From a virus (taxonomy: Duplodnaviria; Heunggongvirae; Uroviricota; Caudoviricetes): DNA of 64,000 nt. The stretch is from the IMG/VR virus record IMGVR_UViG_3300022747_000014. One strand, given 5' to 3'. Position numbers and translations under genes: made by a program. Below the pieces are notes generated by a model that was not told the origin of the DNA, made no database searches, and was given only the letters and a program-made list of their open reading frames with translations. This document shows positions 1 through 22,950 of the stretch, one piece after another (within the stretch, counting starts at the first letter, position 1; every line of letters starts with the position of its first letter).

Positions 1-120
1 CCTATATATGAGTATTCTTGGCGTAAGTCAAAGCGGGAGAAGAAGCCTAGTATCTGCAGATGCGAAAGTTTCAGAGCTTGACTCCTCCTAGGCCTGCATT
101 TGAGAGTGCTCTTATATAAG

Positions 121-1228: not shown

Positions 1229-1672
1229 ATGAATATGATTCCTCTGTTTAATTCTGATTCTTTATCCGCACAACGGATAGTGCTGTTTTCAGTTAGCCGC
1301 ATACCAAGCAGTGCAACTATAAAACAAATCAAGGAATTTGATAGTTTATATAACGAGTTCGTCAATTTGGGAATTAACGACATTTATTGCTTGACCTTAA
1401 ATGAAGAACTGTTATATAATATGCTTTTGCCAAAGTTGTCAAACAAGATTAAATTTGTTTCGGGAATTGAACAGGTTATAGATTTGTTCAACAAACGAGG
1501 CAACATTGAGTTTTTAAAACAGTATTGGCATTTTGTGTCTATACTTGACAATTTTCGAATTGAACAGTATAATGAACAACCTTTCAAGGAAAAGTTAGGA
1601 ACTGATACAAACGTTTCGTTTTACAGTGAAATTTCTCCAAGAAAGTTGTTAACGCAGTTGACACAAAATTAA
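1229..1672 (+). CDS. hypothetical protein
   Basis: 147-aa ORF, AT-rich, directly follows the upstream gene. Confidence 0.5.
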   Translation: MNMIPLFNSDSLSAQRIVLFSVSRIPSSATIKQIKEFDSLYNEFVNLGINDIYCLTLNEELLYNMLLPKLSNKIKFVSGIEQVIDLFNKRGNIEFLKQYWHFVSILDNFRIEQYNEQPFKEKLGTDTNVSFYSEISPRKLLTQLTQN

Positions 1673-2022
1673 ATCTGTGTAATAATACACACATGTTAAG
1701 AAATTAACAAACGTTCTTTAAAAATTTGTTTTGATGTAAAGTAAGCAGGCGTACCACGCTAATAGGTTGCGTGACTCTTGCTGAAAATCCGGTCCAGATA
1801 GAAAGCTGGGCACTCTTGTGTAGTTTGTAAGAGACTACAGTGGCGTCTAACACCTATGAGTTAGAAACGATCTATTCCACGTAGCAATACGCAGGAAGAA
1901 GGATTGCAATAGAGTAGAGTAACACTCAACTGGTTGCATGAGGGTCAACTAAAAGACGCAAGTCTTACCCGTAGCCTTGTAAGCAGGCGAAAGAGGCATC
2001 AAAACAAATTTCCAAGTAACTG

Positions 2023-2051
2023 TTGACAGCAAATGAAAAGTTTGCTACAAT
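2023..2051 (+). promoter_or_regulatory. sigma70-type promoter (TTGACA-17 nt-TACAAT)
   Basis: Perfect -35 TTGACA (2023-2028), 17-nt spacer, -10 TACAAT (2046-2051). Sits inside the ORF-free region and faces the downstream structured sequence. Confidence 0.6.
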
Positions 2052-2929
2052 AGAAGCTTAGTTAGACATTGTGCTAACTAACAAAGTTCTTTAAAATTGT
2101 TAACGTATAAGTTCTTATACACATGCACATAGAGGTTCTGCGTCGAAAACAGAATTGATGTGATAGTAAGCAGGTTCGAAACTGTTTGCTATAAGGCAAC
2201 ATGCACTTTCTTAAAATAAGTGCAGCAGGTTTCGATTCCTGCGTGTGTGCAGATGTATAAGAATTTAATCTTTATTGTTTCGAGTATTTGCTCCAAGCGG
2301 TTATCAGAACAGGTTGACGGAAGCCTAACTACTGTCAACAAAGTCTGGGTACAATGAGGTAACGAACTCGTACACCGTGGGAGGTTTAAGTTAGGCCTTA
2401 CTCCTGTGTAAGTACTCGAAACAATAAAGATTTAAGGGCAGTTTAATGTCCTGCAAAGAGTATGGTTCGCCCAGCTTGATGCGAAGAATAACTGTGGTGA
2501 CACAGCCAAAGGAGGTATGCCTACATAACTCCGCTAGCAATAGTTCATTTAGACAAGCCTGCTCACTCCTGTGAGGGAGCGTTCACTCAGCGACGGGTGG
2601 ATGTAACAGTGACGCAAAGTGCATAGGGAAGAACGCTTGCTTAAACGCCTGAGATTGCATCAAGGGGAACGTTAGTAGGTGGAAAGTAACAGGTGGTGCT
2701 GACTTCTATGCGAAACCAACTTTGTTAATTGGTATGAGAAAGGGTAGTGTATTGGTTCGAAGGGTTGCACCTAAGAGCTCGTATGCAGTTTTAGTGGGTG
2801 GTGGCTGTAGTAATGCAGACGCTGGTCGCGAAAGACGACTGATTACTCCGCAAGAGGAAAGGTACGTGGTGTGTTGTATTGTGTAGAGCCAAAACTTTAC
2901 GCAGCAACTGAGTCAGCACATCGCAGTAG
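2052..2929 (+). ncRNA. candidate large structured non-coding RNA(s) downstream of the strong promoter (function unknown)
   Basis: No ORF of 60 aa or more in six frames across 1673-4014. Promoter immediately upstream. Long perfect inverted repeat, multiple hairpins, T-arm-like GGTTCGAAAC / GGTTTCGATTCC mimics. Flanked by tRNAs. Confidence 0.3.
2266..2433. repeat. long inverted repeat (20 bp or more, perfect) enclosing ~120 nt
   Basis: aatctttattgtttcgagta (2269-2288) is the exact reverse complement of tactcgaaacaataaagatt (2414-2433). Confidence 0.7.
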
Positions 2930-3001
2930 GTTGATATAGTTCATTGGTAGAACATCTGTCTCTTAAACAGAATGCGGTGGGTTCGATTCTCACTATCATT
3001 A
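2930..3001 (+). tRNA. tRNA-Lys (anticodon CTT)
   Basis: Acceptor GTTGATA/TATCATT (one U-U mismatch at 2:71), D-arm GTTC-ATTGGTA-GAAC, anticodon stem TCTGT/ACAGA, loop CTCTTAA, T-arm GTGGG-TTCGATT-CTCAC. CCA not encoded. Confidence 0.5.
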
Positions 3002-3075
3002 AAACGCAAAGACTGACTCGGTCATATGTGAAAAGCATCTAATACTAGACACGCAAGTGAATCTAGTCAGACGTA

Positions 3076-3279
3076 ACTCGCAAGGTGAAATCTGTTTATG
3101 CAGGAAGTTTCGTAGTTCGCAAGACTTAATGGCTCGCAAGGTCAACGGGATAGAAAGCATAGAATAGCATGTGACGACAAGCCTACTGCCTGGCTTTAAA
3201 AACGGCGATGCTGACAGCAGACTAGATTACATAGCAATATGGATTTAGTGGAAGTCGGAAGAAAGCAGACTCGCAAGGT
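3076..3279 (+). repeat. three copies of the motif (A/G)CTCGCAAGGT, plus a nearby GCAA-capped hairpin
   Basis: actcgcaaggt 3076-3086, gctcgcaaggt 3132-3142, actcgcaaggt 3269-3279. Hairpin ACTAGA-CAC-GCAA-GTG-AA-TCTAGT at 3045-3066. Confidence 0.5.
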
Positions 3280-3547
3280 TTGTAATAATGTCCGAGGTGT
3301 TGTTGGGAGAGATGTATTCTCAGTCCTCCACTTATATGCAAACACATTGTATTCAGTTAGACTCTGATAGCACTTGGGACGCTGGGTGCATAGCCAGCAG
3401 TGTGTTTACATATAAGTTTTTTGAGTAGTGACGCCTTTAGCGAGGGAGCCTAGTGTAGTACGGATTGTTCTTCGGTGCTATACGACACGGTCACGCTGTT
3501 GAAGAGTAAGAGAACATGAGCGACAGCCCACTACTCAAAGAATTTAT

Positions 3548-3623
3548 GCACGGTTGGCAGAGCGATTATGCGCTGGATTGCAAACCCGGTATGAGGTAGG
3601 TTTGACTCCTACACCGTGCTCCA
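3548..3623 (+). tRNA. tRNA-Cys (anticodon GCA), CCA encoded
   Basis: Acceptor GCACGGT/ACCGTGC, anticodon loop TTGCAAA, T-arm GTAGG-TTTGACT-CCTAC, discriminator T, CCA. Aligns position by position with E. coli tRNA-Cys from memory, including its unusual D-arm (GCGATTATGCGCTGG vs GCGGTTATGTAGCGG). Confidence 0.7.
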
Positions 3624-3960
3624 ATTTTGAGAACCTGTAGCTTGCTGCCCTGAGTAGCAAGTAACCGAAAGGGTAAGACAGAGTGACGAGATCTACGTCA
3701 ACAGGAAGCTCATTTTAGTTTTGCTAGTTTCTTAAAACTAGCTGTGGCGTGTGGAGATGAGAGATTGCACATTCAATAAGCCCTTGAAAAGCTATATTGA
3801 AATACAATCGTGATCCAGTGCTCCGAGATGAATTTGCATTAAATTGCTTGTTTGTTGATGCTCGGCGATATTGGTATCCTCTGCTTGTTGTATTTTGCTT
3901 TAGAAAACAGTTGCCTTGAAAATCAACTAGATCTAATGTACTTTGCACATTGTCCCGCAA

Positions 3961-3990
3961 TTGACTTGCCATACGTTGCACCCCTATTAA
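3961..3990 (+). promoter_or_regulatory. putative sigma70-like promoter upstream of ORF 4015
   Basis: TTGACT (3961-3966), 18 nt, TATTAA (3985-3990). RBS AAAGGAA 4001-4007. Confidence 0.35.
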
Positions 3991-4014
3991 AATCAAACAG
4001 AAAGGAACTCGATT

Positions 4015-4581
4015 ATGAAATTTACACTTCGCAAAGCAAACGCCCTACAAAACACAATCCAGGAACACATCAAGACGATCGACATCGCACTGACAGTTTC
4101 CCTTAACGAGTTCCAAAGTACCACTTCGGTGATGAACACAGCACGTGAAACTCTGGTCCGCAACGATGCCAAGCGCACACAGTTGACCAAGGCCCTGTAT
4201 GGCATCCGTGCAAAGGTTGGTCGTGCCAACGTTGAAGCTGGTGTTGCAGATCTGCTTACAGACGCTGCATTCATTGACAAGCGTTTGGGCTTTTTGAAAA
4301 GCCTAACTGAGAGCAAGGTTGTTGAAGACACAGCAGTGCTTGAAGGCAAGCTAGAGAAGCTTCGCACACAGGACAAAAATAGCCGCTTATACGGTTACAA
4401 CGACACAGTTGACACTGGCGTGCTTGAAGCAGGTCAGATTGAAGGTTACAAAGCAGAAATGCGTGACCTGAAGAAACAGAAACAAAGCATCAACGACAAG
4501 GTGTTGGAACTTAACGTTCGCACTGAGATTGAGTTGGATGCAGATACCGTTTCTTTGCTACAGGCAGAGCAACTGGTATAA
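4015..4581 (+). CDS. hypothetical protein (predicted coiled-coil)
   Basis: 188-aa ORF with RBS. Followed 8 nt later by a tRNA cluster. Confidence 0.6.
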   Translation: MKFTLRKANALQNTIQEHIKTIDIALTVSLNEFQSTTSVMNTARETLVRNDAKRTQLTKALYGIRAKVGRANVEAGVADLLTDAAFIDKRLGFLKSLTESKVVEDTAVLEGKLEKLRTQDKNSRLYGYNDTVDTGVLEAGQIEGYKAEMRDLKKQKQSINDKVLELNVRTEIELDADTVSLLQAEQLV

Positions 4582-4588
4582 ATATCGA

Positions 4589-4667
4589 AGCAGGGTAGAG
4601 GAGTTCGGACGTCCTCGCCAGTCTCATAAGCTGGAGATCGCAGGTTCAAATCCTGCCCTTGCAACCA
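4589..4667 (+). tRNA. tRNA-Met/Ile2 (anticodon CAT), CCA encoded
   Basis: Acceptor AGCAGGG/CCTTGCA with A1:A72 mismatch, D-arm GAGG...CCTC, anticodon stem CCAGT/GCTGG, loop CTCATAA, T-arm GCAGG-TTCAAAT-CCTGC, A73, CCA. No three G-C pairs at the base of the anticodon stem, so elongator rather than initiator type. Confidence 0.6.
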
Positions 4668-4877: not shown

Positions 4878-5312
4878 ATGTTATCGATTATCACTGACAC
4901 CCAACACCCAATACTTGATTACATCAAGGACGACCCTGTTCGCCCAGAAATCCCAAAAGAATTCCGGGTGAGTGGTAAACGGTTTGTTAGTGCATTGGTC
5001 AACGAAAAGCCTCGTGCAATAGTTTGTGTAAGTTTACATGACTTTGTTCCGGCAGCAGTAGAAGACTTATCACAAGAAACCGAACAACCAACAACAGCAA
5101 TTTTCTACACAATCTGGAGTTATGCTCCTGGCGCAGGTTTAGAATTGCTTCGCGAAACTGTAAACGAGATACGTAGTAGATTCCCGTACATCACTAGATT
5201 TGTTACACTAAGCCCAAAGACAGAAATGGCACGCCGTTTCCATCTTAAAAATGGTGCTTTTGTAATGCGTGAAAACGAAAATACAGTGAATTACGAGTAC
5301 CTGTTAATATAA
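4878..5312 (+). CDS. hypothetical protein
   Basis: 144-aa ORF followed by an intrinsic terminator. Confidence 0.55.
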   Translation: MLSIITDTQHPILDYIKDDPVRPEIPKEFRVSGKRFVSALVNEKPRAIVCVSLHDFVPAAVEDLSQETEQPTTAIFYTIWSYAPGAGLELLRETVNEIRSRFPYITRFVTLSPKTEMARRFHLKNGAFVMRENENTVNYEYLLI

Positions 5313-7883: not shown

Positions 7884-8843
7884 ATGAAAAAATCGCACAC
7901 TATTCGCTGGGTGTTATACCACGAACCTATCCATTTGTTTATTCGTACAGCAAAAGCATTTTCTGAAGAAATTGAAAAATTAACAGATGGACGTATTAAC
8001 GTAGAAGTTTACACTCTAGAAGAATATGCCCAAAAGTTTAAAAATGGTGTAGTGTTTGAACCTATTGCATTAATCAACTCAGGTGAAATTGACATGAGCC
8101 AGATGCAAACTGGCATCATTGGGGTATGGAATGCACCGGATTTCTTTGCACTAGACATGCCTTATTTGTTTAAGGACCACGATCATGCGACTCGTGTATT
8201 AGATGGCGAAATTGGTCGTAAGATGCTTGATTCGTTGCAAGATGTTAGCCCAGTTCAGGGTCTAGCATTTACATACAGCGGTGGCTTCCGAGTGTTAGCA
8301 ACAGACCGTCCAGTAAATACAACAGAAGACTTAGAAGGTTTAAAGTTAATTACTACAGCTAATCCTGTTATGGTAGAAACTGCTAAAAAGTTAGGTTGTG
8401 AGCCGTTGCCATATATGATTAGAGATTTGCATTCAAAAGGCAAAGAATTGGTTTCTATCCAAGGACATAGTGTAGAAACAACTTTACCACGTTATGAGTA
8501 CGAAGCAGATACAACAGTTCAAACTCACATCGCTGATACAAAACACAGCATGTACTTGACTAGCATACTAATTTCTAAAGATTTATGGAATCAATTTGAC
8601 AGCGAAGATCAAGAACTAATCCGCCAGGCAGCTCGTTCGGCCGCAGTTCAAGAGCGTCAATGGAGTGTTGATGAAGCAGATGAGTATGCTGTGAATACCA
8701 AACGACACGAAGAACTTGGAATCACTTACACTAAATTTAGCGACGAAGAGTTAGACAAAATGCGCTCTGTGGTTACTCCACTCTACGACCACTACAGTCA
8801 ATTCTTTAGCGCAGGTTTGATTGACGGTATCGTTAAGTCTTAA
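7884..8843 (+). CDS. hypothetical protein; paralog of 253-1200 (solute-binding-like?)
   Basis: 319 aa. Strong paralogy to ORF 253-1200 across the N-terminal 150 aa. Confidence 0.7.
   Translation: MKKSHTIRWVLYHEPIHLFIRTAKAFSEEIEKLTDGRINVEVYTLEEYAQKFKNGVVFEPIALINSGEIDMSQMQTGIIGVWNAPDFFALDMPYLFKDHDHATRVLDGEIGRKMLDSLQDVSPVQGLAFTYSGGFRVLATDRPVNTTEDLEGLKLITTANPVMVETAKKLGCEPLPYMIRDLHSKGKELVSIQGHSVETTLPRYEYEADTTVQTHIADTKHSMYLTSILISKDLWNQFDSEDQELIRQAARSAAVQERQWSVDEADEYAVNTKRHEELGITYTKFSDEELDKMRSVVTPLYDHYSQFFSAGLIDGIVKS

Positions 8844-21324: not shown

Positions 21325-22950
<1,626 letters not shown>

Follow-up and report, generated by a model that had tools for sequence, protein, structure and literature searches.

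GOLLD RNAs, which reportedly go back to Weinberg et al. in 2009, are among the largest bacterial and phage RNAs without a known function, and an RNA-only 14-mer cage was reported for them in 2025. A GOLLD RNA combines a variable 5' region with a conserved 3' region, carries a disordered linker that lies inside the 14-mer cage, and is found in phages, close to tRNA islands (PMC12286853). In env-38 GOLLD, whose cryo-EM structure is PDB 9MEE (Kretsch et al. 2025), the 5' region measures 420 nt, and the RNA self-assembles as a closed homo-14-mer cage whose caps are formed by the 5' domain (PMC12286853). tRNAs sometimes occur in the linker (PMC12286853). A tRNA gene located within GOLLD has been described, and expression of the GOLLD-nested pseudo-tRNA of Mycobacterium aubagnense was not seen (PMC6582537).

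The window (the whole 64,000-nt stretch of DNA analysed) carries at 1673-4014 an island that is very probably a non-coding RNA (ncRNA) operon, located where an uncultured freshwater jumbo phage has its tRNA genes, with a GOLLD gene of about 980 nt (2435-3417) at its centre. The setting is that of GOLLDs in general, which occur in phages or prophages and often near tRNA genes: the window has PHROG matches to tail fibre, GroEL and helicase, and six tRNAs lie within its first 5 kb. The comparison covered about 100 related loci from phages and lake metagenomes (L numbers below), including 15 IMG/VR relatives, which are contigs of up to 374 kb. L006 carries a permuted tmRNA, consistent with an alphaproteobacterial host. 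The island and its flanks contain the following elements:

1658-1686, + strand: promoter P1, TTGACA-17-AATAAT, 11/12 matches, TG before the -10
1694-1723, + strand: leader 1, a hairpin (1694-1709) followed by boxA-like GTTCTTTAAAA (1713-1723)
1722-2011, + strand: RNA-U, a clade-restricted structured RNA of ~290 nt with a 16-bp stalk (1722-1737/1996-2011)
2023-2051, + strand: promoter P2, TTGACA-17-TACAAT, extended -10 TGCTACAAT, 11/12 matches, TG before the -10
2058-2096, + strand: leader 2, a boxB-like hairpin (2058-2081) followed by boxA-like GTTCTTTAAAA (2086-2096)
2110-2266, + strand: stalked tRNA-derived element, 21-bp closing helix (2110-2131/2244-2266) and four hairpins
2264-2435, + strand: hairpin-closed insertion module, 26-nt terminal inverted repeats (2264-2289/2410-2435), TTTAA flanks on both sides
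2435-2865, + strand: GOLLD 5' domain, a clade-specific variant outside the Rfam model, directly joined to the 3' domain in all GOLLD loci that are not truncated
2866-3326, + strand: GOLLD 3' domain, untruncated match to Rfam RF02032 (positions 1-416 of 416)
2930-3001, + strand: tRNA-Lys(CTT), nested in the GOLLD linker (ARAGORN; Rfam tRNA 59.6 bits)
3330-3417, + strand: GOLLD 3' terminal stalk, a 20-nt pairing (3330-3349/3398-3417, inverted repeat I3) with variable interior, then TTTTTT
3412-3547, + strand: small hairpin-closed module I4, with inverted repeat I4 and conserved loop AAGAGUAAGAGARCRUGAG
3548-3623, + strand: tRNA-Cys(GCA) (ARAGORN; Rfam 41.8 bits)
3724-3979, + strand: RNA-L, a structured RNA of ~260 nt with a long-range closing helix and internal hairpins, no Rfam family
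3980-4014, + strand: short spacer that holds the ribosome-binding site (AAAGGAA) of the 188-aa gene
4015-4581, + strand: conserved 188-aa protein gene, start ATG, 1050 metagenomic homologues

The cmscan match of 2866-3326 to RF02032 scores 207.4 bits (gathering score 150, E 3.6e-57), and the pseudoknot strands are paired in it with one non-standard pair. Hairpins of the CGCAAG type occur at 3045-3066, ~3077, ~3117 and ~3133, the first being the GCAA-capped hairpin picked out by the first-pass annotation, which worked from the sequence of the window. With this covariance score, the pseudoknot and GNRA hairpins, a structured 5' domain and a variable linker containing a tRNA, the RNA is a GOLLD. 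The RF02032 match recurs at the equivalent position in 12 of the 15 IMG/VR relatives and nhmmer finds about 44 loci, the arrangement being shared by dozens of related phages. The block conserved across all GOLLD relatives corresponds to 2424-3348 of the window, and the 5' domain shows compensatory changes in 49 of 118 predicted pairs (10 sequences). By comparison of related loci, the gene reaches from about 2435 to 3417 (892 nt up to the last model position, 983 nt including the stalk). Its parts are a 5' domain particular to the clade, the universally conserved 3' domain, whose variable linker holds tRNA-Lys(CTT), and the conserved terminal stalk. The stalk is seen in all GOLLD loci inspected, with a variable interior, and its arms vary between loci in step (judged by eye, uncounted). 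Together with the TTTTTT behind it, the stalk could act as a terminator, in which case the proposed operon would be divided.

The first-pass annotation had proposed a large ornate structured RNA co-transcribed with the tRNAs, one of the kind of GOLLD or ROOL and perhaps new. A large ornate RNA, lying beside and around tRNAs, is indeed encoded, but its novelty is not borne out: the main RNA is GOLLD itself. Nor is the region just a set of tRNAs, as Rfam accounts for 2866-3326 and two tRNAs only. The island RNAs show strong covariation.

Both tRNA-Lys and tRNA-Cys had been recognised in the first pass, with correct gaps of ~870 nt ahead of the former and 546 nt between the two. tRNA-Lys aligns with unstructured linker columns of RF02032 in cmscan, and a tRNA inside the GOLLD linker is an arrangement already described (PMC12286853, PMC6582537). 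In the clade, a linker tRNA is called in 27 of 31 distinct GOLLDs at a common offset of 61-64 nt; the 27 comprise 13 Asn-GTT, 7 Lys-CTT, 5 Lys-TTT, one Arg-TCT and one unassigned tRNA. tRNA-Cys is syntenic in most relatives. Cutting of the nested tRNA by RNase P and RNase Z would split GOLLD in two.

Like env-38 GOLLD and RF02032, the window RNA has a full-length 3' domain with pseudoknot and GCAA-capped hairpins, and a structured 5' domain of ~430 nt lies directly upstream, close to the 420 nt of env-38. The variable linker follows the first hairpin of the 3' domain, as in env-38, and the RNA is phage-borne, lies in a tRNA island and exceeds 800 nt. It differs in its 5' domain (2435-2865), whose sequence shows no similarity to that of the env-38 counterpart; thus, cage stoichiometry and geometry are not confidently transferable, and a cage is attributed to the window RNA by analogy. 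The clade also differs from described GOLLDs in having a tRNA-shaped linker insert in every member, where the literature speaks of 'sometimes', and a conserved terminal stalk of ~20 bp with a variable interior after the 3' domain. A further difference is that the window GOLLD stands behind an rrn-like promoter-hairpin-GTTCTTTAAAA leader. The GOLLD of Caulobacter phage phiCbK (Dolichocephalovirinae) likewise nests a tRNA, tRNA-Gly-TCC (105107-105179), ~65 nt into its 3' domain, but it is a simple promoter-GOLLD-terminator unit of high G+C without a boxA-like leader. Thus, the leader is not a general feature of GOLLD.

Promoter P2, proposed in the first pass, keeps its -35 and extended -10 over variable spacers in many loci (20 of 26 contexts); promoter-like sites as such are at chance level in number (8 found, 7.4 expected). 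P1 is paralogous to the P2 region (L038 matches both) and is conserved in L001, L003 and L004, its -10 reading TATAAT or TACAAT in close relatives. Among the loci compared, promoter, hairpin and GTTCTTTAAAA follow one another in 26 distinct contexts, with the 11-mer invariant, and a strict TTGACN-16..18-TAYAAT ends 25-39 nt upstream of it in 20 of the 26. The leader hairpins vary in sequence between loci and keep their fold (mean z -2.6).

Several smaller observations of the first-pass annotation concern this part of the island. The hairpins TTAGTTAG/CTAACTAA and GTATAAG/CTTATAC are present at 2058-2081 and 2106-2121, respectively, as is CTCAC-TCCT-GTGAG, which lies at 2562-2575, ~10 nt from the position given for it. 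The recurring motif GTAAGCAGG has 3 copies against 0.47 expected, a number that 0 of 100 shuffles reach. The T-arm look-alikes are likewise present, at 2173 and 2228. Neither they nor the motif are parts of one giant RNA: the motif belongs to the duplicated promoter-leader, and the look-alikes to the tRNA-derived stalked element.

In rRNA (rrn) operons, the order boxB-boxA-boxC, leader-trailer helices and RNase III have been described (PMC10250234), and boxA shields long untranslated CRISPR transcripts from Rho (PMC7665894). The island resembles rrn leaders in its succession of promoter, hairpin, U-rich boxA-like 11-mer and one half of a long helix, which is completed by a 3' strand on the far side of a structured RNA body (PMC10250234). 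A further likeness is the long transcript, which is untranslated and would be open to Rho if unprotected (PMC7665894). It differs in its product, which is phage ncRNA and tRNAs rather than rRNA. The 11-mer GTTCTTTAAAA agrees with E. coli rrn boxA UGCUCUUUAACA (taken from PMC3177189 and general knowledge) at 9 of 11 positions and departs from it at two, a comparison made with E. coli in place of the phage's own host.

The elements of the island all share the + strand, and there is a positive G-over-C skew from ~1350 to 3900, strongest at 2400-3750. From this layout we infer transcript ends, processing, antitermination and multimerisation in the island. Host sigma-70 RNA polymerase would start at P2 (~2058) and at the duplicated P1. 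By analogy with boxB/boxA of rRNA operons, the nascent leader (hairpin plus GUUCUUUAAAA) may recruit NusB/NusE-type antitermination factors, and antitermination could let the untranslated RNA of ~2 kb escape Rho. The module-bracketing stalks of 16-26 bp may correspond to rRNA-like leader-trailer helices, acting as folding guides and probable RNase III sites, and tRNA-processing enzymes would release tRNA-Cys. Mature GOLLD might form, like env-38, a cage of several RNA copies and no protein, inside which the linker tRNA would point, and the transcript would run on into RNA-L, as a separate structured RNA, and the 188-aa gene.

The window locus itself is one more GOLLD member, and the comparative set is more useful. 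It holds ~40 GOLLDs of related uncultured lake phages with a common, strongly covarying 5' domain and a nested tRNA at one linker position whose anticodon shifts among Asn, Lys and Arg, and it adds conserved promoters, the boxA-like leader and bracketing stalks. The set thereby yields testable hypotheses on GOLLD biogenesis (Nus-dependent antitermination, RNase III processing) and cargo (the linker tRNA). If true, the rRNA-operon-like GOLLD unit would be the first concrete handle on how GOLLD is produced and perhaps on its cargo.

RNA-L is likely a new structured RNA family, as judged from its conserved pairing. In a MAFFT alignment of 40 sequences, 97.2% of cells are paired, against 32-43% in slid controls, and 25 pairs have compensatory changes. 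Covariance model R1 finds RNA-L in 62 distinct loci, with compensatory changes in 41 of 53 pairs and a covariation score of 0.526 (at most 0.079 when slid), and many G-U pairs point to the + strand. No ORF frame within it is conserved among 15 related loci, and searches of RNA-L and RNA-U against Rfam 15 (E <=10, lax filters, short region) gave only chance-level miRNA, xrRNA and leader matches. As a well-supported new-family candidate with 62 sequences, RNA-L could enter RNA family databases. The protein encoded next to it has no Pfam family and a weak match to phrog_25230; its structure model is a helical bundle, for which a structural search gave no informative match. We regard as evenly poised the fuller reading in which RNA-L is an undescribed ~260-nt family that a large freshwater jumbo-phage clade carries in its tRNA/GOLLD islands, in genetic linkage with the 188-aa helical protein and possibly forming an RNA-protein pair with it, and GOLLD would come from an rRNA-operon-like unit with boxB/boxA leader, processing stalks and, in every case, an AAN/AGA-codon tRNA in the cage interior.

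RNA-L might instead be a cis-regulatory 5' leader of the 188-aa gene, riboswitch-like or mRNA-stabilising, and not a free RNA. Its end lies ~35 nt before the start codon in ~50 of the 62 loci, and RNA and gene are co-inherited across 41-95% protein identity, which makes this a serious if somewhat doubtful alternative. However, in L072, L073, L074, L087, L092 and L093, RNA-L follows the gene at a distance of ~400 nt and has no substantial ORF behind it, and in L089 it precedes an unrelated ORF. The ribosome-binding site is also outside the conserved fold, and in many loci the 5' end of RNA-L abuts the 3' end of tRNA-Cys, as for a product of a tRNA operon.

Read as a free RNA, RNA-L recalls the T4 tRNA cluster, in which the stable RNAs species 1 and 2 are co-transcribed and processed with the tRNAs. 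The likeness would lie in small stable RNAs among phage tRNA genes, RNA-L abutting tRNA-Cys in many loci; RNA-L has no sequence or structural relation to species 1 and 2 and is larger (~260 nt). Among cultured phages, only Brevundimonas jumbo phages (Dolichocephalovirinae) have a homologue of the 188-aa protein. In Brevundimonas phage Domovoi the homologue (26-29% identity) does not adjoin tRNAs or GOLLD, and RNA-L was not detected in that phage.

RNA-U has a minimum free energy (MFE) of -99.5 kcal/mol, with z = -4.4 on the + strand and z = -2.8 on the - strand, and compensatory changes in 7 of 106 predicted pairs (0-2 in slid controls). It is confined to the window and L001-L005; the suggestion of the first-pass annotation of a possibly new RNA survives for RNA-U, more weakly than for RNA-L. 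The stalked element at 2110-2266 has two T-arm-like and two anticodon-arm-like hairpins among its four and compensatory changes in 9 of its 51 pairs. Neither ARAGORN nor the Rfam tRNA model calls a cloverleaf there, for which reason we class the element as tRNA-derived rather than as a tRNA. Its only Rfam match is a weak tRNA-Sec-like one (15.8 bits, E 4). In relatives, the corresponding place is taken by a real tRNA-Leu or gives odd class-II tRNA calls. The module at 2264-2435 (MFE -65.2 kcal/mol, z = -6.6) is missing in L001, L004, L005 and L008 and is found only in the window among ~100 loci; at this site L003 and L016 instead have a module that is unrelated to it and has inverted repeats of its own. 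I4 occurs only in the window, L008/L010, L005 and L027, is missing from L001-L004, and has compensatory changes in 6 of 19 predicted pairs.

An alternative explanation is that the non-GOLLD sequence is mostly decaying tRNA-array debris and selfish MITE-like hairpin insertions that have no function themselves, only GOLLD and the two tRNAs being functional. The modules at 2264-2435 and 3412-3547 and the insert of L003/L016 come and go between close relatives, have terminal inverted repeats and share a TATAAG-AATTTA junction. RNA-U is present in six near-identical loci only, its body being precisely missing in L045, and the look-alike arms of 2110-2266 are tRNA-derived. We nevertheless consider this explanation rather unlikely. 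The fold of the tRNA-derived element is kept by compensatory changes, and in L041 the element is 90% conserved although the protein next to it has only 58% identity. RNA-L is conserved in 62 loci and covaries very strongly there, the promoter and its leader are conserved too, I4 has a conserved loop and covarying stems, and no module has a second copy in the 64-kb window, unlike active MITEs.

The longest stretch without any ORF of at least 60 aa is 1673-3723 (2051 nt), the runner-up gap in the 64-kb window being 301 nt; since ORF-free gaps of ~3 kb arise in shuffled sequence, this stretch is unusual relative to the coding density of the phage itself, not to random DNA. The first-pass annotation had called all of 1673-4014 free of such ORFs, which fails beyond 3723, where a 90-aa TTG ORF (minus strand, 3724-3996) and an 84-aa TTG ORF (3852-4106) are found. 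Neither frame is preserved in 15 related loci, and the two are thus not genes, 1673-4014 being effectively non-coding throughout. Unrecognised small protein-coding genes, to which the 90-aa ORF and several ORFs of 40-57 aa might point, are most improbable: no frame upstream of the 188-aa gene, and hence no short ORF family, is preserved among these relatives, substitutions in helices are compensatory and not codon-patterned, and 1673-3723 holds nothing of 60 aa or more.

Equally improbable is the giant RNA class distinct from GOLLD and ROOL envisaged in the first pass, starting at 2058 and running ~880 nt to tRNA-Lys: Rfam does reach only 2866-3326 and the tRNAs, and 2058-2865 is highly structured, but this reading is already contradicted by the division of 2058-2865 into independent modules of different phylogenetic distribution (leader and tRNA-like element widespread, the 2264-2435 insert window-only, 2435-2865 always fused to the GOLLD 3' domain), and a variable 5' domain of ~420 nt is among the features that define GOLLD (PMC12286853).

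The stretch from 1673 to 3723 (2051 nt) is the longest in the 64-kb window without an ORF of at least 60 aa in any frame; the next longest measures 301 nt. The first-pass annotation had described ORF-free sequence as far as 4014, which holds up to 3723 but not beyond, where a minus-strand 90-aa ORF with a TTG start occupies 3724-3996. Its frame is kept in none of 15 related loci, so it was rejected as a gene and the whole of 1673-4014 is effectively non-coding. All elements of the island lie on the + strand, and G exceeds C over approximately 1350-3900, with a peak at 2400-3750. When the island was compared by blastn with 50,697 records of cultured phages, a tRNA match alone came back; thus, no cultured phage is closely related to it. 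The 147-aa ORF that precedes it (1229-1672) has no relatives in IMG/VR and was dropped as a synteny anchor.

A large ornate RNA beside the tRNAs had been sensed correctly and is real; its principal component, however, was known before. An Rfam cmscan of the island identified it as GOLLD (RF02032), matched at full length on the + strand at 2866-3326 (416/416 model positions, 207.4 bits against a gathering score of 150 bits, E 3.6e-57). No Rfam family other than GOLLD and tRNA was found in 1500-4200, even at E <=10. Both tRNAs recognized earlier, Lys-CTT (2930-3001) and Cys-GCA (3548-3623), were confirmed by ARAGORN and Rfam, in keeping with the published location of GOLLD genes in phages, near tRNA islands (PMC12286853). 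GOLLD lies upstream of, and on the same strand as, a gene for a 188-aa protein (4015-4581 in the window) in 12 of 15 viral loci according to Rfam and in approximately 44 loci according to nhmmer.

The block common to all GOLLD loci corresponds to 2424-3348 of the window, and the portion 5' of the Rfam match (2435-2865) accompanies the 3' domain in every GOLLD locus on an untruncated contig. The consensus fold of this 5' domain, built from 10 sequences, has compensatory changes in 49 of 118 pairs. Straight after the Rfam model, every inspected locus carries a stalk of approximately 20 bp (3330-3349 pairing with 3398-3417 in the window), whose arms covary between loci by eye and whose interior is variable. 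At 3339/3408 of this terminal stalk, and at the equivalent position of the related locus L005, a C.A or A.C mismatch is kept where the surrounding pairs differ. Together, the conserved block, the covarying 5' domain and the 3' stalk place the GOLLD gene at approximately 2435-3417. By nhmmer, the 5' domain of this clade has no match to env-38, the GOLLD solved by cryo-EM, whose sequence was taken from the Kretsch supplement at 815 nt instead of ~833; the cryo-EM contact numbering is therefore not transferable. The lack of similarity to the env-38 5' domain fits the known variability of this part of GOLLD. The core of the island is a GOLLD member, in which all testable defining features were found, and by analogy it would assemble into a cage.

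The tRNA-Lys aligns within the unstructured linker of GOLLD, which separates the model's first hairpin from the pseudoknot. This arrangement matches published descriptions: a phage tRNA is sometimes found in the disordered linker, which points inside the 14-mer RNA cage (PMC12286853), and mycobacterial tRNA clusters include a tRNA or pseudo-tRNA within GOLLD (PMC6582537). Of 31 distinct GOLLDs, 27 have an ARAGORN tRNA call at an offset of 61-64 nt within the 3' domain, comprising Asn-GTT (13 of 27 calls), Lys-CTT (7), Lys-TTT (5), Arg-TCT (1) and one unassigned call with a four-base anticodon. Three of the four GOLLDs lacking a call have a tRNA-shaped insert in the alignment, and the fourth ends at a contig edge. 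Because the tRNA bodies and stems vary between loci, the cloverleaf appears to be maintained across the clade. Across the GOLLD of the window and 30 related ones, the tRNA position is fixed but its anticodon switches between neighbouring AAN/AGA specificities, which suggests that tRNAs were swapped within GOLLD or that their anticodons shifted. No description of a universal linker tRNA with a shifting anticodon in a GOLLD clade was found in the open-access literature. One metagenomic contig, L036, carries two complete GOLLD genes (926-1386 and 4103-4565) approximately 3 kb apart, which nest different tRNAs, Lys-CTT and Asn-GTT.

The interest of the finding is carried by this comparative material and by RNA-L more than by the GOLLD match itself. 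The elements around the GOLLD gene and the tRNAs are as follows, those in 1673-2435 having been separated by alignment with the closest relatives and wider blastn searches.

1658-1686, + strand: promoter P1, then a hairpin, then GTTCTTTAAAA at 1713-1723
1722-2011, + strand: RNA-U, between P1 and P2, a 16-bp stalk around a multi-hairpin body
2023-2051, + strand: promoter P2, then a hairpin, then GTTCTTTAAAA at 2086-2096
2110-2266, + strand: stalked tRNA-derived element, a 21-bp closing helix and four hairpins
2264-2435: insertion module of 172 nt with 26-nt closing inverted repeats, fold z -6.6
3412-3547: module I4, hairpin-closed, downstream of GOLLD and followed by tRNA-Cys
3724-3979, + strand: RNA-L, a structured RNA of ~260 nt (for example, 5697-6001 in L013, 70-370 in L030 and 5990-6313 in L072, all related loci)

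The promoter TTGACA-17-TACAAT reported by the first-pass annotation at 2023-2051 was borne out, as were its two T-arm look-alikes and the triple GTAAGCAGG motif; all the hairpins it named are present, but some of their coordinates were off by up to ~10 nt. The promoter-leader units of P1 and P2 are paralogous. Their 11-mer GTTCTTTAAAA is invariant and was found on the + strand in 26 distinct contexts within the 669 kb that the related loci (L001-L092) comprise; in 20 of these 26 it follows 25-39 nt after the end of a strict TTGACN-16..18-TAYAAT promoter. The sequence of the interval between promoter and 11-mer varies by locus, and its hairpin fold is kept (mean z -2.6). GTTCTTTAAAA agrees at 9 of 11 positions with UGCUCUUUAACA, the boxA of the E. 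coli rrn operons, which may differ from the host's own boxA. The RNA form GUUCUUUAAAA is termed a boxA-like leader motif. The E. coli boxA has been given through its differences from an Aquifex 12-mer (PMC3177189). In layout and motif (a hairpin, then GTTCTTTAAAA), the P1 and P2 leaders resemble the leader of rRNA operons, where the order is boxB-boxA (PMC10250234), and we infer that a putative rrn boxB/boxA-like leader heads these phage tRNA/GOLLD arrays. No description of an rrn-like leader and stalk layout around GOLLD was found in the open-access literature. The motif TGTATAAGAATTT makes up the 3' strands of stalks; it was rejected as a general phage promoter, with six matches in 64 kb, mostly within the island.

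By this reading, sigma-70 transcripts from P1 and P2, forming a single or overlapping set, would undergo Nus-factor antitermination via the boxA-like motif; boxA-dependent antitermination guards CRISPR arrays, among other long transcripts that go untranslated, against Rho (PMC7665894). The stalks would act like rRNA leader-trailer helices and RNase III sites, and GOLLD would form a multimeric cage enclosing the tRNA, on the pattern of env-38. Against this, the phiCbK GOLLD, which likewise nests a tRNA (tRNA-Gly), is a simple promoter-GOLLD-terminator unit that lacks the boxA-like leader present here; moreover, the terminal stalk followed by TTTTTT could end transcription, and tRNA processing could split GOLLD in two.

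RNA-U has a minimum free energy of -99.5 kcal/mol (z -4.4 on the + strand versus -2.8 on the - strand) and compensatory changes in 7 of 106 pairs versus 0-2 in slid controls, in which the predicted pairing partners are shifted along the alignment. It is present in the window and L001-L005 only, its body being cleanly gone in L045, and it has no Rfam match. Since its sequences are five and near-identical, the evidence is suggestive only. An IMG/VR scan for its loop motif (ACCTATGA-N6-AAACGATCT) returned six chance matches and no RNA-U, the known loci also being unreturned. The stalked element, whose hairpins include the two T-arm look-alikes, has compensatory changes in 9 of its 51 pairs; neither ARAGORN nor Rfam calls it a tRNA, and in relatives its place is taken by a genuine tRNA-Leu or by an unusual class-II tRNA call.

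The 2264-2435 module is an insertion unique to the window, at a site that reads as the uninterrupted junction GTATAAGAATTTAGGGCAG in L001, L004, L005 and L008; the module found at the same site in L003 (4197-4370) and L016 (2857-3029) is a different one, bounded by inverted repeats of its own. I4 is present or absent between loci, being common to the window, L008/L010, L005 and L027; its stems covary and its loop, AAGAGUAAGAGARCRUGAG, is conserved. Hairpin-closed modules of this kind measure 130-175 nt, have terminal inverted repeats and are present in some close relatives and absent from others, always at a TATAAG-AATTTA junction preceding GOLLD or tRNA-Cys. Those in the window and in L003/L016 could be mobile elements or swappable RNA modules.

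RNA-L is the best-supported new element of the island: it is absent from Rfam 15, and no description of it was found in the open-access literature. All 15 viral loci, with or without GOLLD, conserve the segment 3716-4000 and share no conserved reading frame across it. In a MAFFT alignment of 40 distinct sequences, 97.2% of consensus cells are paired versus 32-43% in slid controls, and 25 pairs have compensatory changes. The covariance model R1 found RNA-L in 62 distinct loci, with scores down to 31 bits, and in the R1-fitted alignment compensatory changes affect 41 of 53 pairs. The covariation score is 0.526 versus at most 0.079 in slid controls (0/500 shuffles reach the observed values), and the long-range closing helices also covary. 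Its many G-U pairs point to the + strand. Even with lax filters on only 700 nt, Rfam gave no matching family, and RNA-L was not found in Brevundimonas phage Domovoi. A promoter-like TTGACT-18-TATTAA at 3960-3989, which may act as a promoter in the window, was rejected as the cause of 3'-strand conservation because this strand covaries with the 5' strand in distant members.

In many loci the 5' end of RNA-L lies within a few nt of the tRNA-Cys 3' end; the 92-nt spacer preceding it in the window is common to L041 only. Its 3' end usually falls ~35 nt before the ATG of the 188-aa gene. In six distant loci it lies downstream of the gene instead, at a distance of ~400 nt and followed by no ORF, and one locus has it ahead of an unrelated ORF. 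Taken together, these placements make it somewhat more likely that RNA-L is an RNA of the tRNA operon, free or processed, than that it is an obligate leader.

Relatives of the 188-aa protein number 15 in IMG/VR, where their contigs reach 374 kb and thus come from jumbo phages, and a further 79 in metagenomes, mainly those of freshwater lakes (41-95% identity). The protein has no Pfam family and only a weak PHROG match of unknown function. Its AlphaFold model is a helical bundle (pLDDT 83), for which the best PDB match, 3kdq (function unknown; E 0.03), gives no functional lead. The tRNA-Met(CAT) at 4589-4667, as called by ARAGORN, is 79 nt long with its anticodon at position 37, and the forms in relatives are 74-75 nt with the anticodon at 30 or 33; it may be an odd or mis-delimited initiator/elongator tRNA.

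The clade is a distant relative of the alphaproteobacterial Dolichocephalovirinae jumbo phages. Near the GOLLD/tRNA island of a related phage lies the gene for a permuted tmRNA of the two-piece type (L006 7479-7904 / L007 3267-3692; RF04321, 119 bits; tag ANDSVYALAA); this tmRNA hints at an alphaproteobacterial host and fits the placement of the clade. In the window, paralogous genes for DctP-family TRAP-transporter solute-binding proteins (253-1200 and 7884-8843; PF03480, E 2e-40), unusual auxiliary genes for a phage, lie on either side of the tRNA island. A small ORF at 4878-5312 has a match to PF05292, the C-terminal domain of malonyl-CoA decarboxylase (E 2e-8), and a phage GroEL is encoded at 21334-22950 (phrog_5725, E 8e-182).
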